64,000 bases of DNA from a virus: IMG/VR virus record IMGVR_UViG_3300045988_184127; one strand, given 5' to 3'. The position numbers and the translations under genes were made by a program. The stretch's first letter is position 1. Every line of letters starts with the position of its first letter. Shown piece by piece: positions 19,316 to 60,048 of the stretch. The notes beneath the pieces were generated by a model that ran no database searches, was not told the origin of the DNA, and worked only from the letters and a program-made list of their open reading frames with translations.

Positions 19316-19343
19316 TTGCGGAATCGTGCGAATTGCAGACAAT
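19316..19343 (+). promoter_or_regulatory. conserved-module promoter P1
   Basis: TTGCGG-16 nt (aatcGTGCGAATTGca)-GACAAT, then AATTAAAG. Confidence 0.55.
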
Positions 19344-19436
19344 TAAAGACAGAGCGATTGCGAGATGGGGCGATACCGATGCAGTAGGAATGAGAATCTT
19401 AGCAGCTAAAAAACTGAATGTGGAGAAATAAAAATT

Positions 19437-21080
19437 ATGGTATACGTGATTGGAATTGTAGCAGCCCTGATTATTCTCTTTGGATTTCTCTGCTACAAGA
19501 AAGCTCCGCCCACGGAGGCTATCGTTGTAACTGGCTTTGGCCTGTCTAAGCCTAAAGTGGTTTGCGGAAAGGGTACATTTGTTCTGCCCGTTCTTCAACG
19601 GGCTGACCGACTAAATATGCGCCTTTTGAAAATCGATGTCAAGACTCCTGAAACAGGTGTTAAGACGAAGAACGGCGTAAGTCTCTGGATTGACTCTGTT
19701 GTCACGATTCAAGTCTACAGCGAAAACTCTACCGTTCTGGATGAAGAAGTGAAGGCATCCGGTCTGAAAGACGCCAAGGCGTACATCATGTCCCGCCAGC
19801 AGGCAGCCATCTCGAACTTTCTCGGCATGAACGAGCAGGGCATCAATGACAAAGTCAATGACGTTCTGCAGGGCAATTTGCGAGAGATTGTCTCCGATAT
19901 GACCGTTGACCAAATTCTGACGAACCGCAAGCAGATGGCTGTGAGCGTTATCGAGAATGCTCGCCCCGACCTTGCTAAGATGGGACTTGAGGTTGTGACT
20001 TTTAATGTCCAGGACATCAGGGATGCAGTGGATGTTCAGGGCCACAATCACGGCGTTATCGAAGCTATCGGCATCGAACAGGAAGAGCTCGTAAAGAAAC
20101 AGGCTGAAATTGCCCGTGCTCAGGCTGCCCGTGATGTAGCCTGCGCGAAGGCCGATGCTGAGATGGCTGCAAATGCCAAGGAAGTTGAAGCGCAGACTGC
20201 GATTGCAAAACGCAACAATGAATTGCAGCTCGCCAAGGCAAAGCTGAAAGCTGAAGCTGATAAAGCTGCGGCTGACGCAGATGCTGCCGGTCAGATTCAG
20301 ATGAATCTCCGCGCCAAAGAAATCAAAGAAGCGGAAGCGGATGCTGAAATCGCCAAGCAGAAGAAAATGGTAGACCTTGCCGCACAGGAAGCCGAGGTCC
20401 AGCAACGCAAACTGGATGCGGAAGTCCGCAAACAGGCAGATGCTGACCTGTACCGCCGCCAGAAAGAGGCAGAAGCCAAGAAATATGAGGCGGAACGTGC
20501 AGCTGAGGCACAGAAGTTCTCCAAGCAGCAGGAAGCAGAAGGCATTGAGCTTGTCGGTAAGGCAGAAGCTGAAGCGATTCGTCAGAAAGGCTTGGCTGAA
20601 GCGGAAGCCATGAAACAGAAAGCAGAGGCATATAAGCAGTATAACGATGCGGCTGTGGCTGAAATGCTCATCAAGGTTCTTCCTGACATTGCCAAGAGCG
20701 TGGCTCAGCCTTTGTCCAGCATTGATAAGGTTTCTATCATTGGCGGTGATGCCTCCGGCGTATCCGGCGTTTCCGGGAACGTTCCTATCCTGATGGCTCA
20801 AACCATGCAGACGGTGAAAGAAGCGACCGGCATTGACATGGGCGAAATTGTCCGTGCCAACAGCATCCAGGCAAAGACAGACCGCAACATCAACATTATG
20901 ACTCAATGCGAACAGCCTGAGAATAACAAAGAGAAAGGAGGTGCCAAGGCAATGGAACGCGTAGAAGGCGGCTATCTGATTCATGAGAAGAATCTCAACG
21001 GTGAGGAAGTCACTCATTTTCGACCGGATGTGACCGAAGAAGAGAAGGCTATCATGAAAGACAAAAAGGCCAAAGATTAA
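19437..21080 (+). CDS. flotillin-like SPFH/band-7 protein (FloT/YuaG-like)
   Basis: N-terminal TM anchor, SPFH domain, long Ala/Glu-rich coiled coil (AEAEA repeats) typical of bacterial flotillins; 547 aa. Confidence 0.8.
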   Translation: MVYVIGIVAALIILFGFLCYKKAPPTEAIVVTGFGLSKPKVVCGKGTFVLPVLQRADRLNMRLLKIDVKTPETGVKTKNGVSLWIDSVVTIQVYSENSTVLDEEVKASGLKDAKAYIMSRQQAAISNFLGMNEQGINDKVNDVLQGNLREIVSDMTVDQILTNRKQMAVSVIENARPDLAKMGLEVVTFNVQDIRDAVDVQGHNHGVIEAIGIEQEELVKKQAEIARAQAARDVACAKADAEMAANAKEVEAQTAIAKRNNELQLAKAKLKAEADKAAADADAAGQIQMNLRAKEIKEAEADAEIAKQKKMVDLAAQEAEVQQRKLDAEVRKQADADLYRRQKEAEAKKYEAERAAEAQKFSKQQEAEGIELVGKAEAEAIRQKGLAEAEAMKQKAEAYKQYNDAAVAEMLIKVLPDIAKSVAQPLSSIDKVSIIGGDASGVSGVSGNVPILMAQTMQTVKEATGIDMGEIVRANSIQAKTDRNINIMTQCEQPENNKEKGGAKAMERVEGGYLIHEKNLNGEEVTHFRPDVTEEEKAIMKDKKAKD

Positions 21081-21200
21081 AGACAACATGAAAAGAGGGT
21101 GACTCGAAAGAGCCATCCTTTTTTCTGTTGTGACGCAAACGAAAAGTTCATGGTAGCCATCCAATTTGGGTGACTGTCTTTTTTGCATGTTAAGGCTTTG

Positions 21201-21228
21201 TTGCTGAATTGTGCGAATTGAAGATAAT
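21201..21228 (+). promoter_or_regulatory. conserved-module promoter P2
   Basis: TTGCTG-16 nt (aattGTGCGAATTGaa)-GATAAT then TAAAAAC. Confidence 0.55.
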
Positions 21229-21282
21229 TAAAAACAAAAGATGCTTTGTATCAAATCGATTGAAACCGAAGAGGTGAAGTTA

Positions 21283-22086
21283 ATGCTCGGCGTGAGTTTG
21301 ATTATCATAGCAGCGGCTATAGTCTACATGGTCGAAACCTATATCAGCACCTATTACACTATCGAATACATGCACGGAACATCGCTGTTCCTTATCCTCC
21401 TTGCGAAATATGGCACGCCAGTCCTGTTCCTGCTGCTCTGCGCCTACATTGCATATCGCAAATTCCTCAAAAAGCAGAAAGCTGCGGCTTCTGCTGCATC
21501 TGAACGGCCTACAAGCAAAGAAGAGCTGTATACCAACAAAATTCAAACGGCAGTAAAGACAAAAAGCGTCTTCTCAGAGCAGGCTGACCAAATGCTGTAT
21601 CAGGTACGGCGCTTCGGGCAAAAAATGGCCGTTGCCTACAGCATGACCCAGGATAGCAAGACATCCGGGGAACAAGCCAAGTGCCTAACGTTATTGGAAT
21701 CCGCAGAACGTATCTTCTATGACCGACTGGATGACGCGATTCGCTCGGCTTCAATGTTTGATGAAACGGAATACAAGGCTTTCTGTCAAGGCTCTATCTC
21801 GTTTGGAAACAAAGAAGAAGCGCAGAAAAAGAAAGAAATCTACAATGGTATCGTAAGTACCGTGGATAAGGTAGTTTATGACAATGAGCGCTTAATCCTC
21901 CGATTGGATTCTTTAGCATACGCTCTGAACCAACGTTCTGCCCAGAATCCGTGGGATACAGAGGTTGTGCTCGCAATGTCAAAGCTCGATGCTGTCATTA
22001 ACAAGACGACGCAGGATATTGAACAGGATGAAGATATCAGTCGTGAGGCTATGAAACGATATAACAACTTGAAAGGAGAAATTTAA
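21283..22086 (+). CDS. membrane-anchored hypothetical protein
   Basis: Start at MLGVSLIIIAAAIVYM with GAAGAGGTGAAG RBS; two N-terminal TM helices. Confidence 0.45.
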   Translation: MLGVSLIIIAAAIVYMVETYISTYYTIEYMHGTSLFLILLAKYGTPVLFLLLCAYIAYRKFLKKQKAAASAASERPTSKEELYTNKIQTAVKTKSVFSEQADQMLYQVRRFGQKMAVAYSMTQDSKTSGEQAKCLTLLESAERIFYDRLDDAIRSASMFDETEYKAFCQGSISFGNKEEAQKKKEIYNGIVSTVDKVVYDNERLILRLDSLAYALNQRSAQNPWDTEVVLAMSKLDAVINKTTQDIEQDEDISREAMKRYNNLKGEI

Positions 22087-22087
22087 C

Positions 22088-23782
22088 GTGACAAAAAAGA
22101 ACATTTTCCCTGTGGTTGCAACCATTGCTGTGGTAGGCGTTGTTCTCGGCGTGTTTTCGACGACTGTGCTGCGCGACTCGAATGTCAGCATCAGCACGAT
22201 GACTTCCGAGCAGGCATATGCCAACTTGAGCAGCAAGATGAAGCGCATCGGCGTGCAGGAGGTCAAGGTCAATCCTCAGCAGCTGGATGTCTCTGAATTC
22301 CTTGATGCAAAGGATGAACTGCCCGACATTGAATCCTCCTACCCATTCGTGGTCGTAGGAAACGGAGATGTGAACATCGAAATCTTTTCCTCTGGCGAGA
22401 AAGCAGCAGAGTCCGGCTCAGATTCTTTCCTGACCGAAATGGCAAAGAAGTTCAACGCCCAGCACAACAAGACTTCCGGAGACAAGACTATGAGTGTCTC
22501 CCTGCGCTCCATTCCGTCCGGTACGGCGGCTGAGTACATCTCGACGGGAAAGTATCAGCCCGAGTGCTATACCCCCTCAAATACGCTCTTTGGCGAGCTG
22601 GTGAAGAACGAGGGCGTAGAATTGACCGTTGAGGCTGACCGTCTGGTCGGCAATGTGGCGGGTATTCTCGTATCAAAGAAGACAGGGGATATGCTTCGCT
22701 CTGAATACGGTGAAGCTTCTGTTTCTTCCGTTCTGAACGCAACCATCGATGGCAAACTCATGATGGGATACTCGAACCCCTACACAAGTGCTACGGGTCT
22801 TAATTTTCTGCTTGAGGCTCTTGCGAGCAGCGGCAGCGATACGATTGTCGATACGGCTGCTGTTGAGAATTTCCAGAAATTTCAAGCGAACGTCCCTCTC
22901 GTATCCTTCACGACCCAGCAGATGGTCCAGTCGGCAGACAAGGGCATCGTGGACGGCGTTGTCATGGAGTATCAGTCTTATCAGAATGACCCGACCTTAC
23001 AGCGCAACTACGAGTTCATCCCGTTCGGTGTACGGCACGATAATCCTCTGTATTCCATCGGGAATGTCTCTGCGGAGAAGAAGGAAGTTATTGCTGCCTT
23101 CGTTTCCTTCTGCGCTCAGAACCAGGCAGAGGCGACCAAGGACGGATTCAATGGTCTTGACGACTATGCTTATACAGGCAAGGCATACGACGGCAACACC
23201 ATCGCACAGGCTCAGAGTGTCTGGAAAGAAGAGAAGGATTCCGGTATTCCTATTGTGGCAGAGTTCGTTGTCGATACTTCCGGCTCAATGCGCGGCGAAC
23301 CCCTGAATGCCCTGAAAACCGCGATGATAAACACCATCCAGTATATCAATGACGACAACTATATCGGCATCATTGGCTTTGATTCAGATGTCAGGGAATA
23401 CCTGCCCATTGACCAGTTCTCTCTGACCCAGAAAACTCTGTATAAGGGTGCCGTGAACTCCCTCGATGCGAACGGCAGCACCGCAATGTACAACGGTCTT
23501 TGCGTTGCTATGGACCGCATCTACCAGAAATCTCAGGAACTGGGTGGGAATTGCACGCCCATCATCTTTGTGCTCACGGACGGTGACAACAATACCGGAT
23601 ATGGATTCTCCGATACGAAGAACATCATTGCCGGTATGGATATCCCCATTTACACCATCAGCTACAACTACGCAGCGGATAGTCTTTCGGAGCTCGCTTC
23701 CATCAACGAAGCGGCAGCTATCGTCGGCAACAGCGAGGATATCACCTACAAGCTCCGCAACCTGTTTAACGCAGAGATGTAA
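22088..23782 (+). CDS. membrane-anchored von Willebrand factor type A (vWA) domain protein
   Basis: GTG start after AAGGAG RBS; N-terminal TM; C-terminal MIDAS motif VVDTSGSMRGEP...NGSTAMYNGL...TDGDNN. Confidence 0.7.
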   Translation: MTKKNIFPVVATIAVVGVVLGVFSTTVLRDSNVSISTMTSEQAYANLSSKMKRIGVQEVKVNPQQLDVSEFLDAKDELPDIESSYPFVVVGNGDVNIEIFSSGEKAAESGSDSFLTEMAKKFNAQHNKTSGDKTMSVSLRSIPSGTAAEYISTGKYQPECYTPSNTLFGELVKNEGVELTVEADRLVGNVAGILVSKKTGDMLRSEYGEASVSSVLNATIDGKLMMGYSNPYTSATGLNFLLEALASSGSDTIVDTAAVENFQKFQANVPLVSFTTQQMVQSADKGIVDGVVMEYQSYQNDPTLQRNYEFIPFGVRHDNPLYSIGNVSAEKKEVIAAFVSFCAQNQAEATKDGFNGLDDYAYTGKAYDGNTIAQAQSVWKEEKDSGIPIVAEFVVDTSGSMRGEPLNALKTAMINTIQYINDDNYIGIIGFDSDVREYLPIDQFSLTQKTLYKGAVNSLDANGSTAMYNGLCVAMDRIYQKSQELGGNCTPIIFVLTDGDNNTGYGFSDTKNIIAGMDIPIYTISYNYAADSLSELASINEAAAIVGNSEDITYKLRNLFNAEM

Positions 23783-23901
23783 CTCAAAAGCGCGGTTTTG
23801 TCCGCGCAGCTGCTCCAAAAGACAGCCTCCACGCGGCGAGCAGCGGGCAACGGGAGACAGTTCCGGCAAATTGTCTTTGAGACGGAAGGAGGAAGTGCCC
23901 T

Positions 23902-25778: not shown

Positions 25779-27377
25779 ATGGCACGAAGGAAAGCAAACG
25801 ACTTGGAAAATCAGATGTCGCTCATGGACATGATGGCATCGGAAAGCCCCGAATACACCGAGGAAGGTCCGGAAGAACTCTTGGACCCCGGCGAGGACAT
25901 GGGGGACAGTGAAGGGCAGACGGATAAGCCATTCAAACTCGTGGCGAACAAGACCACGAAGGGAAAGGCGAGCATCTCCACGCAGGCGCTGAGTGTTGTG
26001 AAGGCGATATATGCTGATACGGTCGAAACGAATTGGGAAGAGTTGTTTGACGGGTTCGACAGACTCTATGCTATCACTTTTTCGTCCGGAATCGAGTTCG
26101 TGAATAAGGTCATCAACAAGTTCTCGTATGCGGAAGTCGTGTTCGGATGCGAGAAAATCATCGCCACCGACATCGCTGCCATCATGTCGGTGCAAATCGA
26201 CAGCGTGCAGCAGCTCGCTAAGTCTAAGTCGGCAGGAAACCTTGCGAACCGCCTCGATGACGGGTCCTTACAACTGTATGTATCGCGGGACACGAAATCG
26301 CACGAGAAAATCTTCATCTTGGAGAGCGCTGACCGTAAGCGGGTCCGAGTCATCACTGGCAGTGCGAATATGTCGGCATCGGCGTTTTGCGGCATCCAGC
26401 GAGAGAATATCGTTTGCTTCGATGACGAGGCGGCATTTTCGCATTATAAGGCTCTGTTCGAGACCTTCAAGGAGACCTGCTCCGACAACGTTTCGTATAA
26501 GGCAGTCGTGAACACCATGAATCAGGAAGATTATCTGAAAGAGAACATCAAAGAAGTGCCCGTCTTCCAATCCATTGAAAAGCAGAAGCTTATCTTTTTG
26601 GAACAGGCGCAACCTGAGGACGAGGTAGAATACGAGATAGTCGCCGATGTCAAGAAGATGCAGGAGCTCGTCAAGCCGATTATGCCTAAGATGCCGGTAC
26701 AGGCGAATCGTATTGTGGTGGCAGCGGAACCGATGCGCGTTTTTACAAAAAGGTATACAGAAGTTCGTCGTGTGGCGGCTGAGGCAGTTAAGCAGCTTCC
26801 GAAACTGCATATCGACTATGATGCCGGGACCATGACCTTCAACGACGAGAATATCGACCTCAATCCGAATCTCAGCGAGGTGGCAAAGAACATCAAGAGC
26901 ATCCAAAAGTTCTTCTCAGGCATGGACTACTTTTACGGCGATGTCGAGCAAGCTAAAAAAGACTACTTTAAGTACATGACCTGGTATCTGGCTACTCCGT
27001 TCATGGCATATCTACGGTATTTTGCATCGAGGAACAACTACGATACCAAGCTGTTCCCGATGTATGGCGTTATATACGGCGACTCAAATGGCGGCAAGAC
27101 GACCTTTATCAAGTTCCTTGTCAAACTCATGTGCGGGGAGACCGTAAAGATGAACACAACGGAGGATTTTACAGCCACAAGAATCGATGGTCTCAAACGA
27201 GTTTGCGAGGGACTGCCGCTGAATATCGACGACCTCGCCAAGACCGTTCCTTCCGAGTTGAGAATAAAGCAATCGTGCTTGTCCTTTGCAACATCGATAC
27301 CAACAAAAATCATTTCTTTTTACCTCCGGCGTTTTATTTTACAGTGCTGCTTAGAGCCACACCTCTTTGCTATGTAA
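25779..27377 (+). CDS. PLD-like (HKD motif) nuclease domain + C-terminal P-loop NTPase protein, apparently C-terminally truncated
   Basis: SHEKIFILESADRKRVRVITGSANMS resembles HxK..D..GSxN phospholipase-D nuclease motif; YGDSNGGKTTFIKFL Walker A and LPLNIDDL Walker B ~90 aa before stop (SF3/VirE-like geometry but too short). Confidence 0.45.
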   Translation: MARRKANDLENQMSLMDMMASESPEYTEEGPEELLDPGEDMGDSEGQTDKPFKLVANKTTKGKASISTQALSVVKAIYADTVETNWEELFDGFDRLYAITFSSGIEFVNKVINKFSYAEVVFGCEKIIATDIAAIMSVQIDSVQQLAKSKSAGNLANRLDDGSLQLYVSRDTKSHEKIFILESADRKRVRVITGSANMSASAFCGIQRENIVCFDDEAAFSHYKALFETFKETCSDNVSYKAVVNTMNQEDYLKENIKEVPVFQSIEKQKLIFLEQAQPEDEVEYEIVADVKKMQELVKPIMPKMPVQANRIVVAAEPMRVFTKRYTEVRRVAAEAVKQLPKLHIDYDAGTMTFNDENIDLNPNLSEVAKNIKSIQKFFSGMDYFYGDVEQAKKDYFKYMTWYLATPFMAYLRYFASRNNYDTKLFPMYGVIYGDSNGGKTTFIKFLVKLMCGETVKMNTTEDFTATRIDGLKRVCEGLPLNIDDLAKTVPSELRIKQSCLSFATSIPTKIISFYLRRFILQCCLEPHLFAM

Positions 27378-27379
27378 CC

Positions 27380-27571
27380 TCGTTCTATATAAACCGTCTG
27401 GCGGTATCTAACTGATTAACACTAAAAACAAAGAGCCGTGGTTGGAGCCTTTCCGAAACCGTCTTGCGGTAGGAGGTTTAAACCAATCCACAGCACCTTG
27501 TCTATTGTAGCATTTTGTCCTTGGAGAGGGACTTTAATAACTACTACTTTATAATACGAGGAGTATCTTGC
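27380..27571 (+). ncRNA. candidate omega-RNA region for IscB
   Basis: ~190-nt non-coding stretch immediately upstream of iscB containing imperfect repeats accgtctggcggta / accgtcttgcggta; omega-RNAs are known to lie 5-prime of iscB. Confidence 0.3.
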
Positions 27572-28924
27572 ATGAGCACTTGCGTTTGTGTTCTCAGCAA
27601 CAGTGGTGAACGCTTAATGCCTACCATCCGTCTTGGCAAGGTACGCCGACTCTTGAAAGACGGAAAAGCAAAAATCGTTAAGCATCATCCTTTTACTATT
27701 CAACTGCTGTATGACAGCAAAACGAACACACAACCCATCGAAATCTGCGAAGACGTGGGCTACAACTACATCGGCATCAGCGTAAAAAGCGAATCCCACG
27801 AATATGTGTCTGCCCAGTATGATACATTACAGGATGAGAAAGCCTGCCACGACAGTTGTCGTAAGTTGCGCCGAACCCGCAGAAATAGACTGCGCTACCG
27901 TAAACCGCGCTTCGATAACCGCAAGCGCGGCGAAGGTTGGCTTGCTCCTTCTTTGAGGCATAAGAAAGAACTCAATGTCAACGTTGTCAAGATGTATTGT
28001 GCAGTAATGCCCATTACTCATGCAACGGTTGAGGTTGGTTCTTTTGATACGATGCTTGTAAAAGCAATTCAGGAGGGAAAAGCCATTCCTGAGGGAGCAG
28101 ACTACCAGAAAGGTCCCCGCTACAACTTGGCAACTTCGCGTGAGGCAGTGTTCTACCGTGATAATTACACCTGCCAAGTTTGTGGACGCAAAGTTGCGGA
28201 TGGTGCCATTTTACATATGCACCACATGTTCTACTGGAAAGGAAGACACGGCGACAGCCTGAACGAACTTCTAACGGTATGCGAAAAGTGCCATACACCT
28301 GCCAATCACCAAAAAAGCGGTAAGCTTTATGGCTTCGGAGAAAATGTAAAGTTTGCCGACCTTTCCGGTGCGGCTTTTATGAACACCGTTAGGTGGCAAA
28401 TTGTCAATGAACTCTACGCTGCTTTTGGAAAAGATTTTGTCACCATCACTTATGGCGCAATGACAAAAGAAAAGCGCATTGCGCTTCAACTTGAGAAAAC
28501 CCACAGCAATGATGCGTATGCAATGGGCGAGTTTCATCCAAACTGCCGCTGTACGTTTGAACATTATGAAAAGGTAAGGCGTAATAATCGCATCCTTGAA
28601 AAGTTTTATGATTCTCGCTACATTGACATTCGTACAGGAGAAATAGCTACTGGAAAAGAACTCTTCAACGGTAGAATTAACCGTAACCACAAAAAGGATT
28701 CGGAAAATTTGCACAGATACCGTGGCAAGAGGACATACGCAGGGCATCGCGCTCTATTACGCAAAAAGGTAAACCTTAATCCGGGTGATTTAGTCTCTCT
28801 CAACGGAGAAGTTCTCGTTGTGCATAGCACTCATACCAATAAAAAGGGTGCTGTAAATGTAGAATTCAAAACACCCGGAAAAGCGGTCAAAAATCTGCAA
28901 GCCTTAAAAAACTTAAAATTGTAA
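27572..28924 (+). CDS. iscB: IscB OMEGA RNA-guided nuclease (PLMP-RuvC-bridge helix-HNH-RuvC-TID)
   Basis: N-terminal SGERLMPTIRLGKVRRLLKDGKAKIVKHHPFTIQL (PLMP domain), ICEDVGYNYIGISV (RuvC-I), RKLRRTRRNRLRYRKPRFDNRKRGEGWLAPS (Arg-rich bridge helix), CQVCG...LHMHHM...CEKCH (HNH), HSNDAYAMG (RuvC-III). Confidence 0.8.
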   Translation: MSTCVCVLSNSGERLMPTIRLGKVRRLLKDGKAKIVKHHPFTIQLLYDSKTNTQPIEICEDVGYNYIGISVKSESHEYVSAQYDTLQDEKACHDSCRKLRRTRRNRLRYRKPRFDNRKRGEGWLAPSLRHKKELNVNVVKMYCAVMPITHATVEVGSFDTMLVKAIQEGKAIPEGADYQKGPRYNLATSREAVFYRDNYTCQVCGRKVADGAILHMHHMFYWKGRHGDSLNELLTVCEKCHTPANHQKSGKLYGFGENVKFADLSGAAFMNTVRWQIVNELYAAFGKDFVTITYGAMTKEKRIALQLEKTHSNDAYAMGEFHPNCRCTFEHYEKVRRNNRILEKFYDSRYIDIRTGEIATGKELFNGRINRNHKKDSENLHRYRGKRTYAGHRALLRKKVNLNPGDLVSLNGEVLVVHSTHTNKKGAVNVEFKTPGKAVKNLQALKNLKL

Positions 28925-29837: not shown

Positions 29838-30434
29838 ATGAGCTATGAACCCATTATCACACCGGGCAGGAATTTCTTTCTTGTCTCGACGGAGTACAAA
29901 GAGAGCTGCTCTGCCTGGTGCCGCAAGCAAATTAGAGCGACACTGAGGACCTGTCAGGGACGAGTCATCATCATTGATGCAACGGGCGAGTACGCGGACT
30001 TGGCGCTTGAACATGACAGATTGATTCGAGAGAAAATCCCGTCCATCATTTATCGGTATAAGCTGGTGGACGGGAAACCGTATATTGCTCATGTCATTGA
30101 AGTTGATACGGAAGCAAATGAAGCACCGCACCTGATTGTATACGATATCAGCCGGACCATAATCACCAGCTGGAAGGTCGGCGTAGAGGCAATTGATAAA
30201 ATCCTGCAATCCTATGCCGTGATGCGGGACAGTGAAATCGCGTGGTTGTATGTTCCGCTGGACTTATATACCAATGTCAAGCCTGAAACCGAATCCTGGA
30301 ACATTCTGGAACGAACTATCAAGGGTAATGAAGGCAAGCTCATGACAGTACTGACGACTCGCAAATTCACCATTGGGATGGTCCAGCGCTGTTTGCATAT
30401 GACAAAAAATAAACTTTTGGAGGATAGCAAATGA
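29838..30434 (+). CDS. hypothetical protein
   Basis: 198 aa ORF 40 nt downstream of P4. Confidence 0.4.
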   Translation: MSYEPIITPGRNFFLVSTEYKESCSAWCRKQIRATLRTCQGRVIIIDATGEYADLALEHDRLIREKIPSIIYRYKLVDGKPYIAHVIEVDTEANEAPHLIVYDISRTIITSWKVGVEAIDKILQSYAVMRDSEIAWLYVPLDLYTNVKPETESWNILERTIKGNEGKLMTVLTTRKFTIGMVQRCLHMTKNKLLEDSK

Positions 30435-31318
30435 CCAATGAACAGCTGAGAATCGCATTGACGGCGAATGCCGTTACCAAACAAACCCGAAACCATTTTG
30501 GATTCAGTGACCCGTGTGGAAAAACGCTAGAAGAATACAACAAGTCCGCGATGCTGTGCTGCATGACAGCGGCGCAGAGAATGAACACGCCGGGTTTTGA
30601 GCGTGTTTTGGCTGCGCAGATTTTTCCCTGCTTTACCATTGGCTGCTGGAATCAGACGAAGACGGTCTATGATTTTGACTACGAGTTTCAGAAAATGCTG
30701 ATGGATACGGATGACGTGGCAATTCATCAGGATATCCTGCAGCGACTCCCGGTTCGTGATTTCTTTATCCCGGTGTATGACAGCTACGACTACAACGGTA
30801 TGTTCGTGCATGTGGAATTCGACGAAAAAGAGAAAACCACAGCTTTCGGTATCGTTCTTGTCGGCCCCACTAAGGGCAGCCACGATGATTTCACGTTCCT
30901 GACTCTGCCTGCCTGGGCCAAAGAAAACCAGAGTTTGACGGAAGCAACCCGGAGTACGAAAGAATACCTGGAAAAGGCAGCAGGGCAGCGGCAAGTAAAT
31001 GGTATCAGCGTACCGGCTGTGATGGAAGCAGTTCCTTCGGTCTTTGACGGCGGCACACCTTATGTCCGGCTGGCAATCCTGTGCGCCAACTATCTTGCCA
31101 GCAAGAACCCAGATGTCCGCCTTGAAACTTCCAAAAAGCGTGACCGCCCGGTATTCGTGTTTCAGGGAAAGGCACAGCGAATCAACGTCAAGACATATAC
31201 CGTTGGTGAGAATGCGGCCAAAGAATACAAAAAGAATGGGGAAGGCAAAACCCCCCGCTGGCGGCATTACTGGTGCGGCAATGGCCGGGAACGCCGGGAA
31301 TGCAAGTTTATTTACTGA
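30431..31318 (+). CDS. hypothetical protein
   Basis: 295 aa ORF, 4-nt overlap with upstream gene. Confidence 0.4.
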   Translation: MTNEQLRIALTANAVTKQTRNHFGFSDPCGKTLEEYNKSAMLCCMTAAQRMNTPGFERVLAAQIFPCFTIGCWNQTKTVYDFDYEFQKMLMDTDDVAIHQDILQRLPVRDFFIPVYDSYDYNGMFVHVEFDEKEKTTAFGIVLVGPTKGSHDDFTFLTLPAWAKENQSLTEATRSTKEYLEKAAGQRQVNGISVPAVMEAVPSVFDGGTPYVRLAILCANYLASKNPDVRLETSKKRDRPVFVFQGKAQRINVKTYTVGENAAKEYKKNGEGKTPRWRHYWCGNGRERRECKFIY

Positions 31319-32044: not shown

Positions 32045-32239
32045 AAAAAAGTCAGCAGCCATAAGCAAGAGGCAGGGCCCTGTGTTTCATGGTTCCAGAA
32101 CGTCTTCCCACCTTAATTTTACCAGTACTTTGATATTTTGTGGCCATTGACAAACGGCGCAAAAGGTGCTTGGGTTAAAAGCCCTTGCAAAAAAGTGCAA
32201 TATCCATATAATAAGAAATCCAAAAGGGAGATACACATT

Positions 32240-32856: not shown

Positions 32857-32897
32857 TTCCCGTGTGAGCAGCGACGCTCATGCGGGAATTTTTTTGT
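32857..32897 (+). terminator. rho-independent terminator
   Basis: tcccgtgtgagcagcgacgctcatgcggga + atttttttg. Confidence 0.5.
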
Positions 32898-32966: not shown

Positions 32967-33003
32967 TGTCCCGCATGAGTTGTTTGTGCGGGACTTTTTT
33001 GTT
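32967..33003 (+). terminator. intrinsic terminator inside 5-prime leader of P5 transcript (attenuator or sRNA 3-prime end)
   Basis: gtcccgcatgagttgtttgtgcgggac + ttttttg located ~35 nt after TSS and 20 nt before ATG 33023. Confidence 0.55.
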
Positions 33004-37065: not shown

Positions 37066-38952
37066 TCACTGAACAACTTCGCCAAGGTCATTTGCGTATT
37101 TCGGGTCACACATCATGAAATAGTTGACGGGGCCGTACTCCAGACCGAGCTCCTGCGCGTATGCCTTGATAGCTTCCAGAACGTCCTCTCTCTTGAGGCC
37201 AAACTTGGAATGCAGACGGGCAAACTCTTTGTCAGAGACAGAAACGCAAGAGCAATTTTCTGCATCGGTTTCTTTGCTGCCCAGCATCCCGTCAAAGATG
37301 TCCTGCCCTGCACAGAGAATCGTCTCATTGTTCATCGCATAGGCGATAACGGAAGCCTTACAGTCAAAGTCGCTGTTTTCCACAAGGAAATCCTCAGGGC
37401 GGCCGTGACGTTCAACAACGTTTTCATAGATGTCCCGGAGTTCGATAGGAGCAGAAGGAGCGGTCAGAGCTGCTTTATGAAGGCGCATGAATTCCACAAA
37501 CTTTTCATTCGAGAGGGTATCGGTATAAAAGCCGATGCCGGAAACGCGAACCTTCACTTCGCTGGCAAAGTAATCGTCAATTTTGGAAACGATTTTCTGC
37601 TGGACCCGCTTGTATGCTTCCTGAACATTGGAAGCCGTGTAAAATACCGGGAACTTCATGATGTCGATTCCCTCCGGCAGACTCGCGTCATAGGCCGCAT
37701 CAATGCCGCCCCGCAGCGCCGGAACTGCGTCATGCAGCTCTTTCACAGAAGAAATGTATCCGGTAATGTACAGCTCATCGTTTTTGCTGTAATGCCCGAT
37801 AAGTCCCACATAGAGGGTCTGCATCAGCATCCGCTTGAAGCTGAACCAACAAAGACGAATAGGTAGAATGACATTAGCAGCCGTACCTTCCGCACGATAG
37901 GTGCCGGGGGCAGAGACCTTTTCCAGCAGAATCTGGTCATTCTTGTCGCCGTATTTTTCCTTGAAAAGAGCTTGAAGAATTTCAGTGGACGAAAGAGGAG
38001 TGGACATTGGAATCGTTTCATTCAGAAAAGAGAGGAATGCATCCACATTGTCTTTCTGCCATGCGTCATCAGACATGCTTGCACGCTGCATAGAGAGCTT
38101 GTCTTTCCCGTCGTCAGGCAAGGGCTCATACCCGCAGGCGATACGAAGCTCGTTCTCCGTGACAGCATCCGTTGCGCTTGCAATTTTCTTGATGGTATTT
38201 TCGGTCGGCTGAGCTTTTGCGTTGCCATTCACGAGGCTGCTGATATACCCACGAGTCAGTCCTGCCTGAAACGCAAACTTACCCTGTGTTCGGGTTCCGA
38301 TGGCTTTTTTGACCAGCGATGCCAGCCTTTGAAAGTCGGGCTCTTTGGGAAAGGTGGCCTCCGTATCCTTATTGCTGTTCTTTTCAAGTACCGACTTGTC
38401 CCAACCGGTGACAAGAGAATACCCAATATCCTTCAAGGATTGATAGGCAACCCCGTTCTGGTCAAGAGCCGGGGAGTATGTACCGCTGTTATCTTCCAGC
38501 TGCTCTACTGCGTCACGCACCATCCTTGCTTCGTTCATCAGGATGACGTCCGGGGCTTCAAGCCGGGCAAGACTCTTGTACCGATTATTGAGGCGCTCGA
38601 CTCGTGCGGCCAATGCAGTGATGTTGGCAACTTGGTCTTCCGTTGCATGGGCAGAGATATCTGCACCAAGTTCAAAATGGTTCAGTGCAGGAATATCCAC
38701 GCCTTTGCTCTTGGCGAATTCCACAATGGCTTCCGCGCCATAGAAACGCTTCTCATGGGCTGCGACAACTTTCGTTATCGTGTCGGCCGAGTTGTCCAGC
38801 TCAAGCACTTCACCTTTTCCGGCACCCTCGACATAACACCTGGCGTTGGTGAGAAAGCCTTTCAAAAAATCAGCATCCACATCCAGCTTCTTAGCGATGC
38901 CGGGCAGCTGCTTATAGAAAATCACGGGCGTGGCGAGGTTAACAGAAATCAT
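37066..38952 (-). CDS. large hypothetical protein with central XRE-like helix-turn-helix
   Basis: 628 aa; segment QRLASLVKKAIGTRTQGKFAFQAGLTRGYISSLVNG resembles HTH_XRE DNA-binding motif. Confidence 0.45.
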   Translation of the reverse strand: MISVNLATPVIFYKQLPGIAKKLDVDADFLKGFLTNARCYVEGAGKGEVLELDNSADTITKVVAAHEKRFYGAEAIVEFAKSKGVDIPALNHFELGADISAHATEDQVANITALAARVERLNNRYKSLARLEAPDVILMNEARMVRDAVEQLEDNSGTYSPALDQNGVAYQSLKDIGYSLVTGWDKSVLEKNSNKDTEATFPKEPDFQRLASLVKKAIGTRTQGKFAFQAGLTRGYISSLVNGNAKAQPTENTIKKIASATDAVTENELRIACGYEPLPDDGKDKLSMQRASMSDDAWQKDNVDAFLSFLNETIPMSTPLSSTEILQALFKEKYGDKNDQILLEKVSAPGTYRAEGTAANVILPIRLCWFSFKRMLMQTLYVGLIGHYSKNDELYITGYISSVKELHDAVPALRGGIDAAYDASLPEGIDIMKFPVFYTASNVQEAYKRVQQKIVSKIDDYFASEVKVRVSGIGFYTDTLSNEKFVEFMRLHKAALTAPSAPIELRDIYENVVERHGRPEDFLVENSDFDCKASVIAYAMNNETILCAGQDIFDGMLGSKETDAENCSCVSVSDKEFARLHSKFGLKREDVLEAIKAYAQELGLEYGPVNYFMMCDPKYANDLGEVVQ

Positions 38953-46251: not shown

Positions 46252-46304
46252 GCGGGTGGACGTTCTTTTTTTGCCAAAAATAAAAATAAAACGTGATAAA
46301 AACC

Positions 46305-46332: not shown

Positions 46333-46415
46333 AACCCTAATAAGATAAGAATTATGCCCTGACGGCATCTGAATTGGATGCTGCCGGGGCATTTTTGTTG
46401 TTAGGAGATATAGCT

Positions 46416-49136
46416 ATGACGCTGAACGACTTGTCAAGCGAACAACAGGAATTCGTACATTTGGCATTGTCGGGAAAAAACGTATTGTGTGACGCCTGCA
46501 TTGGCAGCGGAAAGACATCGACCATCAACGTGCTCTGTGATGCGTACCCTCCAGAACGGCGTATCCTGTACTTGACCTATAACCGATTACTCAAACTTGA
46601 CGCCAAAGACAAAATCAAAAATCATAATGTCTTGGTCCAGAACTATCACGGATTTGCAAGCCTGCTGCTGAACAAAAAGGGAATCCGAAATTGCGGGCAG
46701 GGTGAACAGCTCGCTATGGTATTGGAAAAGAAAATTCCGATTCCGCCGATTGATACTCTTATCATTGACGAGTATCAGGATATCAATGACGAGATTGCGG
46801 AACTACTCAAATATATCCGTTCTCAGAATCCGAGCCTTCAAATCGTCGCAGTGGGCGATATGAAGCAGAAAATCTACGATGATACAGCGTTGGATGTCTG
46901 GACATTCATGCAGGATTTCCTCGGCCGCCATGAACAAGTGATTTTCACAAAGTGTTTCCGTATTTCCCATGACTTGGCAGAACGGCTTGGCAATATCTGG
47001 GGGAAGACCATCGACGGCGTAAATAGCTCCTGTATCGTGGAACAGATGTCGGTCGATGAAGTGATAGAGTTCCTGAATAAGCAGAACCCCAAAAATGTCC
47101 TTTGCCTGGGTGCTCGAATTGGAGCCATGACGAAGGTGCTCAACGACTTGGAAAATCGACCGGGGAACCTCTATGACAAGCATCATGTCTATGCAAGTAT
47201 CGCAGACAATGATGGGAATAAGGCAGTAGCACCCTCCTCGGATGTTGGTATCTTCACGACTTTTGACGGCAGCAAAGGTATGGAGCGGCCTATCTGCGTT
47301 GTGTTTGATTTCACGGAAGAATACTGGTCGTCTCGCACAAGCAAACCGATGGCACGATATGAGATTCTTCGAAATTTGTTTTGTGTCGCAGCAAGCCGTG
47401 GAAAGCAGCGAATCATTTTCGTAAACTCAGACCATCCGTTGAGCGATAAATCTCTGATGACCCCAACTGAAACTCTTCGCGGATTTCCGCATCCGTTCGC
47501 ATTCTCTGAGATGTTTGACCATAAATTCATCGAGGATGTAGATGCCTGCTATAAGCTGTTGGAAGTCGCACCGATTGAACGTAATGATACCACGTCCATT
47601 GATATCCAGACGGCAGATGCAATGATTGATTTGTCTCCCTGCATCAGCATCTACATGCAGGCAGGATTCTTTAATTCCTACGATATAGATGACGCACTTG
47701 CGTATTACATGGACCTGCATAAAGACATGCAGTATTTGAAAATCAAGAAGGGTGCAACGGTCGAGGATAAGGTTCTACTGCTCACAGCACTCGAAACGAA
47801 TCAGTGCAGGTATGTAAAACAGGTCAAGCCTCCTTTTGTGAACGCAAAAGCCAAAATGTCGCTCAGTATGCGGCTTGGAACCGTGTTCACTCCCGATGAA
47901 TATGTTCAGGCACGTGGCGATATCGACATTCATACTAAGGACCATAAAGTAATTTATACCTCGGGCCTTGCGGATGTCGTAAAGAATAATACCGTCTACT
48001 GCATCAAGTTTATCAGCAGCCTGGCACATAAGCATTTTCTGCAGTGTGCGTGTTCCATGATGGCATTGGGGTTGCCGTATGGCGTTGTCTGGAACGTCAA
48101 AAGTAACCTGATGTACAGCGTAAAAATCAAGGATATAGACGCTCTGATTGACGCAATTACCAAGTGCATTACGAAACGGGTTTATGATAGCGCAGATGAC
48201 TACACCTGCAGGAAAGGTTTTGTACAGGATACCGCGTCGATTATCGACCGATGGACTGACGACGGATATGCGGAAGAGCCCACCACTATCACTTCCGGCG
48301 ACGGTATTGCCATCATCAAGCAAGGAAGCCGCTATTTTGTGATGGACGGAGCACGTCGAAACACCCTGAACGATAATTTCGGGATGGGCTTTGCCGATGT
48401 AAAAGATGCTTGCCTTGCTTATGCAAAGAGTTGTGAACTCCAGAAAATCGTGGACCATGATTCTCCTTATTCCGAAGTCGAATTCTGGCTCGACCAGAAC
48501 AAGGCGTTTGAGGAATACATGACGCAAGTAAGCCATGAAATCGAACAGCACAAGGAAGGACCGTATGCAAAGTATAAGTCTTTCGCTGCTCCCGCTGTCC
48601 GAAAGATGCTGGCCGAAAAGGGACTGACCATCATGTTCCCGGAAAAGGTCCTCATCAAGGTCTGGAAGATGCGCCGTGTCGAAGATGCCATGTATCAGAA
48701 AATTGAAGAAGCAAAGAAGCAGAACAGCTCCAATGTACCGCTTGATGAGGCGTTCTTTGACTCTGAACTGGTGGATTCCGTTGAGGGAAGCATCGAAAGC
48801 GCCAAGGCAAAATCCAAGCCCAAAAAGGAATCCGCATTACCGTTTTCCAAGTACTGCGCAGATGAGAAGAAGAGCTATCGTGTCGTGAAAAGCGATGAAC
48901 TCTCAAAGCCCAACCAGCCCCGTTATGTTGTGGTCGAGACCGCTACTGATAAGGTCCTGGACAATGCTAACGGATATGGCTACCTTTCCTATCAGGCTGC
49001 CTGGAAAGGGTATTCGTACAAGAGCAAGCATCATCTGGACGGCACGAAGAAACCGATAAGTAAGAGTGCAAAAGAGCAGGCAAAGAAAAAGGCGGCTTTC
49101 TTTTCGACTGACTCAGAGCAGCTCAGCTTTGGCTGA
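46416..49136 (+). CDS. UvrD/Rep-like SF1 helicase core (N-terminal ~370 aa) fused to ~540-aa uncharacterised C-terminal region
   Basis: LNDLSSEQQEFV...VLCDACIGSGKTSTI (Walker A / motif I), LIIDEYQDIND (motif II DExQD), FTTFDGSKGMERPICVV (motif V/VI-like); start at MTLNDLS with AGGAGA RBS; C-terminal part has weak GDIDIH...K nuclease-like stretch (unverified). Confidence 0.7.
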   Translation: MTLNDLSSEQQEFVHLALSGKNVLCDACIGSGKTSTINVLCDAYPPERRILYLTYNRLLKLDAKDKIKNHNVLVQNYHGFASLLLNKKGIRNCGQGEQLAMVLEKKIPIPPIDTLIIDEYQDINDEIAELLKYIRSQNPSLQIVAVGDMKQKIYDDTALDVWTFMQDFLGRHEQVIFTKCFRISHDLAERLGNIWGKTIDGVNSSCIVEQMSVDEVIEFLNKQNPKNVLCLGARIGAMTKVLNDLENRPGNLYDKHHVYASIADNDGNKAVAPSSDVGIFTTFDGSKGMERPICVVFDFTEEYWSSRTSKPMARYEILRNLFCVAASRGKQRIIFVNSDHPLSDKSLMTPTETLRGFPHPFAFSEMFDHKFIEDVDACYKLLEVAPIERNDTTSIDIQTADAMIDLSPCISIYMQAGFFNSYDIDDALAYYMDLHKDMQYLKIKKGATVEDKVLLLTALETNQCRYVKQVKPPFVNAKAKMSLSMRLGTVFTPDEYVQARGDIDIHTKDHKVIYTSGLADVVKNNTVYCIKFISSLAHKHFLQCACSMMALGLPYGVVWNVKSNLMYSVKIKDIDALIDAITKCITKRVYDSADDYTCRKGFVQDTASIIDRWTDDGYAEEPTTITSGDGIAIIKQGSRYFVMDGARRNTLNDNFGMGFADVKDACLAYAKSCELQKIVDHDSPYSEVEFWLDQNKAFEEYMTQVSHEIEQHKEGPYAKYKSFAAPAVRKMLAEKGLTIMFPEKVLIKVWKMRRVEDAMYQKIEEAKKQNSSNVPLDEAFFDSELVDSVEGSIESAKAKSKPKKESALPFSKYCADEKKSYRVVKSDELSKPNQPRYVVVETATDKVLDNANGYGYLSYQAAWKGYSYKSKHHLDGTKKPISKSAKEQAKKKAAFFSTDSEQLSFG

Positions 49137-56533: not shown

Positions 56534-56936
56534 TACGAAGCCTGTACAGATTCAGTTCTGTGCGGGCTATTTTTTGTTTACAAAGAAATTTTTGGGTGGT
56601 GAGGCAGTTGACCAGCTATGCGAGCGGCTTAGAATTATAAGTGCAATAAGCAAACACACATCGACACAGTCAACAACCCCGCCAAAACCGGCTGAACCAG
56701 TATTATAAGACTGCCACCGGGCAGCGGGTTGCCAAGCGTGTCAACAATGGGGATTTCCCGTACAATGTTTACGATGCCAACGGCGGTATCGTGAAACCCG
56801 AAACCAAGAAAACCAAGAAAGCTGGGTAATGCCATCAACTTGAGTCTTTGCAGCTGTATGGATGTTGCAAAGCTCAGATATAATCCCGGAATTCTGATAA
56901 TACGCATGGAAAATTGTTGCAAGGAGGACGAAAACT

Positions 56937-58690: not shown

Positions 58691-58693
58691 CGC

Positions 58694-58721
58694 TTGCCAA
58701 AATATACGAACGCCGTACAAT
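58694..58721 (+). promoter_or_regulatory. conserved-geometry promoter P13 (diverged spacer)
   Basis: TTGCCA-16 nt (aaatatACGAACGCCg)-TACAAT. Confidence 0.45.
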
Positions 58722-58767
58722 GTAAAGTGTGAACAGATACTAAGCAATCAGTAGGATTCACAATCTG

Positions 58768-58810
58768 TATTTTAAGCGGACTTATCCCATAGCGGGGTAG
58801 GTCCGCTTTT
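58768..58810 (+). terminator. intrinsic terminator within P13 leader, 20 nt upstream of MBL lipoprotein gene
   Basis: agcggacttatcccatagcggggtaggtccgct + ttttttg; leader also carries AGATACTA and GGATTCACA motifs. Confidence 0.55.
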
Positions 58811-58831
58811 TTTGTTGAAAGGAGAAAAAGT

Positions 58832-59992
58832 ATGAAACTCAAAAACAAGCTTTTACGGAGTACAGCGGCAATCATCGCTACGCTCCTAGCACTCAGCTTC
58901 ACCGGCTGCGGTCAGAATCCGATAATATCGGAAAGTCCATCCAGCACCGGGGTCGTCTCAGAAAGCACTGCAAGCAGTGAACAGACGGCTGGCGGTTCGG
59001 TGGACGGCAGCTTTACCATTCACTTTATAGACGTAGGGCAGGCGGATTCCGCCCTTATCACCTGCGACGGCCACTCAATGCTTATTGATGGCGGTAATGT
59101 CGATGATTCTAACCTCTTATATTCTGTTATGCAGCGTGAAACCGATGGGCACCTGGATTATGTCGTTGGGACTCACGCGCACGAAGACCACATCGGCGGC
59201 TTGTCCGGTGCCTTTGAGGCCGTCACTGCGGACATGACTCTATGCCCTGTGACAGAATACGACAGCAAAGCATTTCGGGACTTTGCAAGCTGTGCGGAAC
59301 AGAAAGGCGGAGGCATTACCATACCGGATGTGGGAGACACTTATACTCTAGGGGAAGCAGAATTCACGATAGTTGGTGTTAATTCTGTTCCCGATGATAC
59401 GAACAATACATCGATTGTTTTGCGTATTGTCTATGGAGGCACCTCGTTCCTCTTTACCGGAGATGCGGAACAGGAAGCGGAAAACGTGATACTTGCATCG
59501 GGACAAGACATTCAGTCAACAGTTCTGAAAGTAGGGCATCATGGCTCAAGTACATCTACCTCAGAGGCTTTTCTGGATGCGGTAAATCCAACATATGCTG
59601 TGATTTCTTGTGGCGCAGGGAACAGTTACGGCCACCCGCATCAGGAAACACTCGACAAGCTGCAAAACAAAGGTGTCGAGGTTTATCGCACAGACCTGCT
59701 GGGTGATATTTACTGCACCTCGGATGGCAAAGAGGTAAGTTTCACTTCCGGTGAATATCATGATGAGAATCGGATTGAAGCCGGTTCTGCTGCAGAGTCC
59801 AATGATGAACAAAACAGCAGACCTCTTGTAATAGACGAGACATACGTTCTGAACACGAGCACTATGAAGTTTCACAAACCCGATTGCTCTGCAGTCGAAT
59901 CGATGAGTCAAAAGAATCGAATCGACTATATGGGGCCCCGCGATGAGCTCATCCAGGAAGGGTATTCGGCGTGTGGGATTTGCAAACCATAA
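58832..59992 (+). CDS. MBL-fold metallo-hydrolase lipoprotein (ComEC C-terminal-domain-like)
   Basis: Lipobox LALSFTGCGQN; HFIDVGQADSALI...DGG...GTHAHEDHIGGL...VGHHGSSTS metallo-beta-lactamase motifs; C-terminal Cys cluster. Confidence 0.7.
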   Translation: MKLKNKLLRSTAAIIATLLALSFTGCGQNPIISESPSSTGVVSESTASSEQTAGGSVDGSFTIHFIDVGQADSALITCDGHSMLIDGGNVDDSNLLYSVMQRETDGHLDYVVGTHAHEDHIGGLSGAFEAVTADMTLCPVTEYDSKAFRDFASCAEQKGGGITIPDVGDTYTLGEAEFTIVGVNSVPDDTNNTSIVLRIVYGGTSFLFTGDAEQEAENVILASGQDIQSTVLKVGHHGSSTSTSEAFLDAVNPTYAVISCGAGNSYGHPHQETLDKLQNKGVEVYRTDLLGDIYCTSDGKEVSFTSGEYHDENRIEAGSAAESNDEQNSRPLVIDETYVLNTSTMKFHKPDCSAVESMSQKNRIDYMGPRDELIQEGYSACGICKP

Positions 59993-60020
59993 AAATTGCA
60001 CCTGATTTACTCGACAAGCT

Positions 60021-60048
60021 GTGCGAACTGACTACAATAAAAAATGTA
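60021..60048 (+). promoter_or_regulatory. conserved-module promoter P12
   Basis: TCGACA-16 nt (agCTGTGCGAACTGac)-TACAAT. Confidence 0.55.

Follow-up and report, generated by a model that had tools for sequence, protein, structure and literature searches.

A recurrent promoter-like module with a conserved spacer block punctuates the variable accessory arm of a Hodor-type conjugative megaplasmid

The 64,000-nt stretch of DNA analysed here (IMG/VR virus record IMGVR_UViG_3300045988_184127, hereafter the window) carries from 19 to 64 kb an almost purely + strand series of gene cassettes, as judged by Pfam, PHROG and NCBIfam scans, and a single 28-nt module recurs along this series in at least 16 copies. 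The module has the layout of a bacterial promoter, with 16 nt between the -35 and -10 hexamers, and its spacer is itself conserved in sequence. The region forms the variable accessory arm of a human-gut conjugative megaplasmid that is circular, ~260 kb in size and of the type recently described as Hodor, and it is neither phage nor integrative and conjugative element (ICE). From their sequence the sites are very probably genuine promoters, specific to these plasmids, and they may unite the cassettes of the arm in one regulon that would serve the establishment of the plasmid after transfer.

A preliminary description of this DNA had listed 13 copies, all on the + strand and of one fixed geometry, and inspection of the sequence at each coordinate finds the module at all 13 sites, with a 16-nt spacer throughout. 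The pattern GTGCGAA-N6-AYAAT, with at most one mismatch, matches 13 times in the window and always on the + strand, as against 0.74 +/- 0.87 matches (maximum 3) in dinucleotide-preserving shuffles. A position weight matrix (PWM) built from the 13 listed sites contributes three more copies, of which that at 19149 is strong (score 33.8) and those at 32185 (score 20.3) and 56608 are weak, and has zero matches on the - strand of the window; a further copy lies ~65 nt past the window end (L012:11604), in contigs with 100% identity to the window. All 16 window copies (Table 1) are on the + strand and intergenic, 13-440 nt 5' of the next + strand start codon, and the proposal that 19.3-64 kb forms one regulatory unit is borne out by a unidirectional unit of ~45 kb, from 19.1 to ~64.1 kb, in which the copies stand upstream of co-oriented genes. 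Some details of the list need amendment: P8 starts at 39796 and lacks a TTG, the P12 module starts at 60011 (60021 being the start of its GTGCGAAC), and P13, at 58694, has a degenerate core, ATACGAAC. A supposed decayed copy near 10060 is not supported, as only the 9-mer TGTGCGAAC is present there, with no -10 or -35 in register and a PWM score below 12, beside the end of an IS200/IS605 element.

The consensus of the module is TTGc-N5-yGTGCGAAT-yGCA-TAcAAT-nAAAA, the spacer being 16 nt in every copy, and sigma-70/sigma-A geometry (TTGnnn, 16-nt spacer, TAcAAT/GAyAAT) is found in 14 of the 16 copies, with a deviant -35 in the other two. Related contigs supply 46 distinct instances, of which 31 remain after removal of near-identical orthologues, and the logo of these 31 paralogues reads T-34 T G c ... 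A-28 ... y G-24 T G C G A A T-17 y G C A T-12 A c A A T-7 n A A A A. Conservation is thus nearly continuous from -25 to -7, with the TTG at -34 in addition; positions -23 to -19 (TGCGA) hold ~1.5-1.8 bits, on par with the -10, and positions -31 to -26 vary freely. Because conservation is position-specific and the flanks are not evenly kept, selection on a (binding) site explains the pattern better than recent duplication does. Within the 31-site set the quality of the -35 and the quality of the core are anticorrelated (rho = -0.45, p = 0.011), and the TG of the motif is offset by one base from the register of a canonical extended -10. A literature search for the motif string returned unrelated primer matches only, and readings of the core as a LexA/Cheo box, cre, Spo0A 0A box, sigma-H, sigma-54 or ECF-type element were rejected, none of them being in register when compared by eye with consensus sequences.

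The module is confined to these plasmids. A scan of GTDB, with one genome for each of 185,579 species, for the pattern TTG-N7-GTGCGAATTG-N3-AYAAT returned 50 stretches, 46 of which occur one per contig in unrelated taxa, many of them cyanobacteria, where ~35 chance matches are expected by an order-of-magnitude estimate from information content. The remaining four belong to one metagenome-assembled genome, 'Clostridiales bacterium HRGM_Genome_2451', all on one strand; a 224-kb contig has three, at 144-184 kb, and a 37-kb contig has the fourth. These loci carry full copies of the module, yet have no detectable nucleotide similarity to the window save in a methylase gene. Since the scan yields chance-level singletons and one related plasmid, a housekeeping promoter of the host is rejected at the stringency used, and the confinement of the motif to the element, which the preliminary description had made its own test, holds. 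A pattern scan of IMG/VR finds more than 117 stretches, with 127 distinct cores among the matches listed; the copies are all on the same strand in 116 of 117 loci bearing copies, and the matches listed include no mixed-strand loci. The logos of window-like loci (43 non-redundant sites) and window-unlike loci (27) are all but identical, with the caveat that the matrix and the pattern used to find these sites were themselves derived from the window. No motif copy is present in the type IV secretion system (T4SS) region or in the 10 kb past the last copy, and several long contigs carry their copies over ~45-50 kb, as far from VirB4 as would be expected.

The identity of the larger molecule follows from its distribution and gene content. 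The exact Cas7 protein of the window is indexed in 3,783 assembly blocks, and the longest contigs with the same Cas7 measure 257-280 kb, come from human-gut metagenomes and have permuted start points, as expected of a circular molecule. A T4SS coupling protein (T4CP), a VirB4-type ATPase and an M23 cell-wall hydrolase are encoded 10 kb upstream of the window, and the first 19 kb of the window, which has a GC content of ~46%, hold an IS200/IS605 copy, an ImpB/UmuC-type polymerase, a YpsA/SLOG protein, lipoproteins and two - strand genes, one of them encoding an HD-domain protein. A February 2026 preprint has described Hodor conjugative megaplasmids of the human gut, 211-389 kb in size and 44.6-47.1% in GC, which were earlier misfiled as huge phages and which encode VirB4/VirD4, an HD-nuclease relaxase candidate and a type I-C system with a degraded array, along with Rep_3, ParA/ParB/ParM, sortases and a giant surface-protein operon (PMC12934698). 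The element matches these plasmids in its size (>200 kb), circularity, GC content, T4CP, VirB4, M23 hydrolase, an HD protein (weakly) and cas5d/cas8c/cas7 with repeat remnants. It is abundant among the 'viral' contigs of IMG/VR, one of which is 389,222 bp long, and its listing there is a misfiling of the kind that the preprint explains (PMC12934698). The text of the preprint contains zero occurrences of 'promoter', 'leading region' or 'defense', and cites paired metatranscriptomes for Hodor plasmids (PRJNA492158, PRJNA354235, PRJNA818303; PMC12934698).

The earlier characterization of the element as phage- or ICE-like can therefore be narrowed, since T4SS genes lie upstream: it is conjugative, so that ICE-like came close, and it is neither a phage nor a self-contained 40-kb element. 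Structural genes, already reported as lacking, were not found, and a megablast search of 50,697 phage records gave one 320-bp match. Among plasmids, PLSDB holds no near match, and pMMCAT is an unrelated Bacteroidales plasmid.

The arm begins beside the HD-domain gene, whose product may be what the Hodor preprint calls a 'short MOBH-like HD relaxase' (PMC12934698). Because its HD/HDIG matches are weak, assignment as a relaxase draws on the structural argument of the preprint and on context. A 291-bp non-coding stretch separates the start of this gene from the first motif copy (region 17460..19148) and is a candidate origin of transfer (oriT), predicted by proximity, as the oriT of Hodor plasmids likewise was (PMC12934698). 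Bacillus, Paenibacillus and Clostridium megaplasmids of 200-900 kb, typed as 'non-mobilizable', also encode homologues of the HD protein, and on Clostridium perfringens pJFP838A (L195) the HD gene again lies divergently to a long array of small genes without assigned function, all on one strand, which suggests a common origin-plus-leading-region layout and an unrecognised relaxase class.

Transcription terminators accompany the module in an unusual way. Terminator-like hairpins stand directly 5' of P1, P5, P8, P11 and the copy at 56608, and many copies then meet a terminator before the first gene, or head no gene at all (19149, P7 and P9). At these gene-less copies the order is 19149, hairpin, P1; P7, terminator, P8; and P9, terminator, P10 with the cas genes. 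Leader hairpins with T-runs follow P5, P11, P13 and P12, and a terminator before the first ribosome-binding site and ATG is found in 26 of 77 non-redundant leaders as compared to 23 of 300 random windows (Fisher p = 4e-8). In one family of leaders the boxes A(G/T)AGATAC and ATTCACA(A/T)T are invariant, and after them comes an intrinsic terminator whose stem shows co-variation; this family comprises 21 distinct versions in both plasmid lineages, including window sites 39728-39797, 58732-58808 and 60049-60145 and those of L042, L075, L092, L095, L110 and other loci. Rfam gives zero matches to the leaders at the gathering score or at E <= 1, and the family may be a new attenuator or antiterminator target.

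A cognate regulator or sigma factor had been expected nearby. Neither a sigma factor nor a classic repressor turned up in the ~84 kb, of ~260 kb, that were examined; candidate regulators are present, linked to the motif by gene arrangement only. The first is a tandem helix-turn-helix (HTH) operon, three adjacent genes directly after the last copy that encode proteins of 175, 172 and 317 aa, with matches to Mor/late-activator, HTH_7/HTH_23, sigma-70 region 4 and Cbp1-type families and to NCBIfam CD3324. The operon stands at the distal end of the array in every contig covering the position and in ~30 IMG/VR loci, and distant tri-HTH homologues elsewhere also lie right behind a motif copy. As one motif copy would drive the operon, the layout appears autoregulatory, and of the genes considered these proteins are, judging by their position, the best candidates for a repressor.

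The second candidate is a 628-aa protein with an N-terminal region of ~200 aa that resembles the beta-prime clamp of RNA polymerase (RNAP), an XRE-type HTH at residues 222-269 and a C-terminal domain without assigned function. Residues 110-176 are homologous to the beta-prime clamp helices (Escherichia coli 264-320), the sigma-binding site (E = 1.6e-5 against PDB 8dkc_D), and the equivalents of beta-prime R278, P288, N294, E295 and N309 are nearly invariant in an alignment of the family. The AlphaFold2 model (pLDDT 84) has a helical hairpin at 105-153, and its top 50 PDB matches are all beta-prime chains, over ~230 columns. The family is confined to these megaplasmids, with ~40% identity in the second lineage, and in both lineages the gene is divergent from a motif promoter at a distance of 215-301 bp, across unrelated intergenic DNA; residues R234 and Y236 of the HTH recognition helix are invariant across lineages at 40% overall identity. 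Upstream of the gene (38953-39166) the direct repeat TGTCAT-N5-CTGTA occurs twice, and in the other lineage (L067, L075 and others) TGTATCATT-N-TGTA occurs twice; these lineage-specific repeats are probable operators, distinct from the GTGCGAAT core, and could be the true targets of the protein, which speaks against a master-regulator role. A literature search on clamp-helix mimics turned up no described equivalent of this protein. It is a long shot that the protein reads the spacer at -24 to -17, next to the -10, and there, as a decoy of the sigma-docking site tethered to DNA, captures or pre-positions sigma region 2. The invariance of R234 and Y236, which parallels that of the motif, and the constant divergence of the gene from a motif promoter speak for such a decoy; the dispensability of the gene in many natural variants and the direct repeats, which offer the HTH an alternative target, speak against it. 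If true, this mechanism would be a new on/off switch for a whole promoter set.

How might the module act? The sites would be host sigma-A-type promoters on duplex DNA, each heading an insulated cassette of the Hodor accessory arm in the order upstream terminator, promoter, leader, genes. The spacer block GTGCGAAT (~-24 to -17, and on to the -10) would be the binding site of a plasmid-encoded protein, and, being common to 15-20 cassettes, many of them with defence or anti-defence genes, would tie these into one regulon. That a dedicated plasmid-encoded factor reads the spacer is a reading to which we give a little less than an even chance. In its preferred form the factor would be a repressor whose own operon, that of the tandem-HTH genes, carries one copy of the promoter; the arm would fire in a burst on entry into a repressor-free recipient and then be shut down, amounting to zygotic induction of establishment genes comparable to that of p576, and the leader terminators, found in about a third of promoters, would form a second gate by attenuation or antitermination. 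This repressor version, taken by itself and argued by analogy, is worth entertaining but unlikely.

The regulon reading is favoured because the same logo is found in two lineages without detectable similarity in flanking DNA, because the cargo of defence, anti-defence and establishment genes lies on one strand and starts beside the HD-domain relaxase-like gene, and because the establishment regulons of p576 and pLS20 provide a precedent (PMC8708921). Promoter geometry and placement, position-specific conservation, the chance-level outcome of the GTDB scan, the lack of copies in the T4SS region and past the last copy, the autoregulatory layout of the tandem-HTH operon and the frequency of leader terminators count in its favour too. 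Plasmid p576 of Bacillus, from the pLS20 family, has four copies of a strong promoter (EGeRS2), flanked by Reg576 operators, that head variable establishment operons; Reg576 is a ribbon-helix-helix repressor, and its operators are dual heptamers, TTATCCC-nn-TTATCCC, that flank the promoter, in its own operon as well (PMC8708921). Common to p576 and the element are a repeated promoter-bearing sequence before variable establishment or anti-restriction operons of a Gram-positive conjugative plasmid, a candidate regulator operon that carries one copy, and the proposed outcome of transient expression after transfer. The element differs from p576, with its four copies, in having at least 16 per plasmid over 45 kb, in the single asymmetric block inside the spacer, and in the leader terminators added to about a third of promoters. 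The Reg576 operator TTATCCC-nn-TTATCCC is absent even at two mismatches, and Pfam scans identified no ribbon-helix-helix protein. The EGeRS1 repeats of pLS20 are 420-750 bp long, GC-rich and highly structured, have no constitutive promoter and block read-through (PMC8708921). Like EGeRS1, the module precedes operons, is confined to one plasmid sector and is associated with structured 5' regions; unlike EGeRS1, it consists of a 28-42-nt promoter and a leader of at most ~100 nt.

Several observations weigh against the regulon reading. The promoter status of the sites is read from sequence geometry and placement, the candidate factors are tied to the motif by the arrangement of genes, and the oriT is placed by proximity. 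The core is asymmetric and single-copy, unlike classic dimeric operators. The anticorrelation between -35 and core, together with the absence of a -35 at P8, better fits a positive role of the core, by an activator or by direct contact with RNAP, than a repressor, and the constancy of the motif while the proteins common to the two lineages are only 40-80% identical points to a very conserved reader, such as host RNAP. The gene for the 628-aa protein is split by an insertion sequence (IS) in 2 related contigs and is missing at its position in 4 of 10, which argues against a master-regulator role. Finally, on the 389-kb contig IMGVR_UViG_3300045988_181067 (389,222 bp) the copies are split between two zones, L113 (51.6-65.6 kb) and L155 (319.9-320.9 kb), with more than 90 kb between them. 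Either this is a composite contig or certain plasmids carry a second arm of this kind, and the strict confinement of the motif is to that extent qualified. Conservation of the spacer, which the preliminary description took to imply a dedicated factor, is thus not proof of one, since the two-lineage motif and the anticorrelation fit a reading by host RNAP equally well.

The most serious alternative dispenses with a dedicated factor. The spacer block would then be a cis element read by the host RNAP holoenzyme, in the manner of a long extended -10 or spacer element, and the promoters would be strong or fast and be kept because each cassette must compete for host RNAP, as T4 early promoters do. 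An identical motif in two diverged lineages implies a highly conserved reader; conservation that runs continuously from -25 into the -10, the trade-off between -35 and core, the survival of P8 with core and -10 alone, and the lack of any sigma factor or classic repressor across the 84 kb covered are all in keeping with such an element. Some chromosomal promoters should, however, use an element of this kind too if host RNAP favoured it, and no genome among the 185,579 species rises above a chance singleton; the TG is one base off the canonical extended -10 register, and -24 to -18 is not known to be a sequence-specific contact zone of sigma-A holoenzyme. We consider it unlikely that host RNAP by itself accounts for the spacer block.

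Quite unlikely is positive control, in which a plasmid-encoded activator or sigma-like protein from the tandem-HTH operon binds the core and recruits or re-targets RNAP; as that operon itself carries the promoter, the circuit would be a positive-feedback switch. The proteins do match Mor/late-transcription-activator families and sigma-70 region 4, one motif copy lies where it would drive their genes, and the mutual compensation of -35 and core quality, with one copy lacking a -35, is what an activator would allow. Most copies nevertheless have decent -35 and -10 hexamers, the tandem-HTH proteins lack sigma region 2, and their binding to the core is conjectural. Activators, moreover, usually sit over the -35 or upstream of it, and not in the spacer at -24 to -17.

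A role of the module mainly in recombination or portability, as a shared terminator-promoter joint for the swapping of cassettes like the PeSLs of T4, is very unlikely. Gene content between copies is very different among ~95%-identical plasmids, many copies come right after a terminator in a PeSL-like layout, and in one case (L003 versus window 39176) homology starts inside the core. Against this, context is shuffled, by a crude k-mer test, at least as often at offsets of +/-400 or 800 nt as at the promoters, the shared block of only ~28 nt has variable positions and is short for homologous recombination, and its conservation is position-specific and not spread evenly into the flanks. T4-type PeSLs (PMC2839356, PMC4122927) resemble the module in that a terminator and promoter punctuate hyperplastic regions and conservation extends beyond the hexamers; they differ in belonging to phage, in their motif and in having been shown to mediate shuffling, whereas here, on a plasmid, junctions are not enriched at the module.

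Scarcely credible, and refuted at the level tested, are single-strand promoters of the Frpo/ssi type on the incoming T-strand, for which leading-region context and one-strand orientation resemble Frpo-bearing islands (PMC11541004) but the best inverted match averages 14.8/28 versus 14.6/28 at random sites and no minus-strand PWM matches exist, and equally a generic housekeeping promoter of the host, which the genome-wide scan excludes at its stringency. Leading-region islands with Frpo (PMC11541004) do share with the arm its one-strand Acr-like genes, orphan methyltransferases, a UmuC/ImpB-type polymerase nearby and a position beside the presumed transfer origin, a likeness drawn from the list of genes; in the arm, unlike those islands, the promoters have no hairpin partner and the cargo also includes defence-like genes (Cascade, nucleases, type I methylase and specificity subunits).

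The kind of system to which the module would belong, a repeated regulatory module by which a regulon of establishment or accessory genes is defined on a plasmid capable of conjugation, is already known. In the IncP-1 kor regulon, dimeric plasmid repressors act at palindromic operators in the core promoters of many operons of a Gram-negative backbone; there too one sequence is embedded in many plasmid core promoters, although the core here is asymmetric and the operons are accessory cassettes. The present case differs in the asymmetric element within the spacer, the scale (at least 16 copies over 45 kb), the coupling to leader terminators and the class of plasmid. Hodor-type megaplasmids are very widespread, and their host, biology and regulation are hardly described beyond one 2026 preprint. 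The 28-nt signature is a cheap marker with which to delimit the variable arm and to mine its candidate defence and anti-defence genes across thousands of metagenomes, and it defines a testable establishment regulon in gut Bacillota, where such regulons are little described outside Bacillus. It also leads to two unexplored parts, a conserved leader RNA that carries a terminator and a protein in which the sigma-docking clamp of RNAP is copied; this leader family and the beta-prime-clamp/XRE protein are the most surprising by-products of the analysis. Should the repressor with zygotic induction prove true, the principle of p576 and pLS20 would extend to a very different and far more abundant class of plasmids.

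Table 1. Copies of the module, the cassettes they head and candidate regulatory genes (window coordinates unless stated otherwise)
Feature	Position	Strand	Hexamers and core	Genes headed and surroundings
HD-domain protein gene	17460-18857	-		weak HD/HDIG matches only (NCBIfam, PDB sequence searches)
Extra copy	19149..19176	+	TTGCGC-N16-TAAAAT, core GTGCGAAC; PWM 33.8	transcript would meet hairpin 19280-19306 and T-run just before P1
P1	19316..19343	+		SPFH/flotillin gene 19437-21080
P2	21201..21228	+		21241-22086 and VWA-domain gene 22088-23782
P3	25406..25433	+		PLD/NgoFVII-like nuclease gene 25779-27377; RRXRR-HNH gene 27515-28924 further downstream
P4	29771..29798	+		29838-30434, AcrVA2-like gene 30431-31318 (Pfam, on orthologue), 31337-32044
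Weak/degenerate copy	32185..32212	+	TTGCAA-N16-TATAAT, core GTGCAATA	5' of 32240-32848; also found by generic promoter scan
P5	32907..32934	+	closest to consensus	terminator 32857-32888 before, leader terminator 32968-32994 after; 33023-33220, ResIII/RadD-like helicase 33276-35471, 35476-36030, NADAR 36052-36504
628-aa protein gene	37066..38952	-		only long gene antisense to array
P6	39167..39194	+	core GTGCAAAT in window, GTGCGAAT in its orthologues	39244-39564; divergent from 628-aa beta-prime-clamp-like/XRE gene, 215 bp apart
P7	39690..39717	+		would drive short conserved leader only (boxes 39728-39737, 39751-39760), ending in terminator 39762-39797
P8	39796..39823	+	-35 reads TTTTTC (overlaps T-run of preceding terminator); core and -10 intact	lipoprotein gene 39847-40254, 40256-40732, RlaP-family gene 40903-41910
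P9	41971..41998	+		predicted ~175-nt non-coding transcript with CRISPR-repeat-like remnants, ending at terminator 42140-42179
P10	42339..42366	+		cas5d-cas8c(csd1)-cas7, 42435-46007
P11	46305..46332	+		leader hairpin 46354-46392 and T-run; UvrD-like gene 46416-49136 and genes after
Weak copy	56608..56635	+	TTGACC-N16-TAGAAT, core ATGCGAGC	after terminator 56539-56568
P13	58694..58721	+	degenerate core ATACGAAC	conserved leader (boxes 58732-58740, 58755-58764), terminator 58774-58808; metallo-beta-lactamase-fold gene 58832-59992, faint Apyc1-like Pfam match on orthologues
P12	60011..60038	+	-35 reads TCGACA	conserved leader (boxes 60049-60058, 60092-60101), terminator 60113-60145; 60183-60923 onward to radical-SAM 61651-62391 and 62462-63895
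Tandem-HTH operon	L012 11744-13737 (~window 64205-66200, past window end)			3, 3 and 6 HTH units; AAA ATPase gene next

The cassettes of the arm differ greatly in gene content among plasmids that are otherwise ~95% identical. Beyond the genes in Table 1, the window version of the arm encodes a type I methylase and specificity subunit without a restriction subunit, as well as DUF4238 and bPH proteins, and cargo of the anti-defence type comprises the AcrVA2-like gene, the faintly Apyc1-like metallo-beta-lactamase, NADAR and the type I methylase and specificity pair that lacks its restriction subunit. Just past the VWA gene, at 23809-23878 (+), the sequence matches the HDV-like ribozyme of Faecalibacterium prausnitzii in Rfam over its full length (58 bits versus a gathering score of 44), possibly a clue to the host range or to RNA processing of cassette transcripts.

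The cas5d-cas8c-cas7 genes have no cas3, cas1 or cas2 beside them. The CRISPR-repeat-like remnants in the P9 unit are GATTGAAAT at 42060 and GGTTGAAAT at 42103, and remnants ending in GATTGAAA(C/T) occur around the cas genes at 42060, 42103, 46044 and 46132. A common 'GCGTAAGATTAT' and terminator are present on both sides of cas5d-cas8c-cas7 (flanks 41999-42180 and 46008-46270). Together with the P9 unit, these genes could be a nuclease-free, guide-programmed silencing device.

Elements of the IS200/IS605 type (TnpA and TnpB) lie at 7767-9909 (-) in the window and at other sites in other copies of the plasmid. In related contigs, polymorphic insertions of the IS605 type are found at positions corresponding to 37367/37574, inside the gene for the 628-aa protein, and to 46408/46413, at the P11 leader hairpin.

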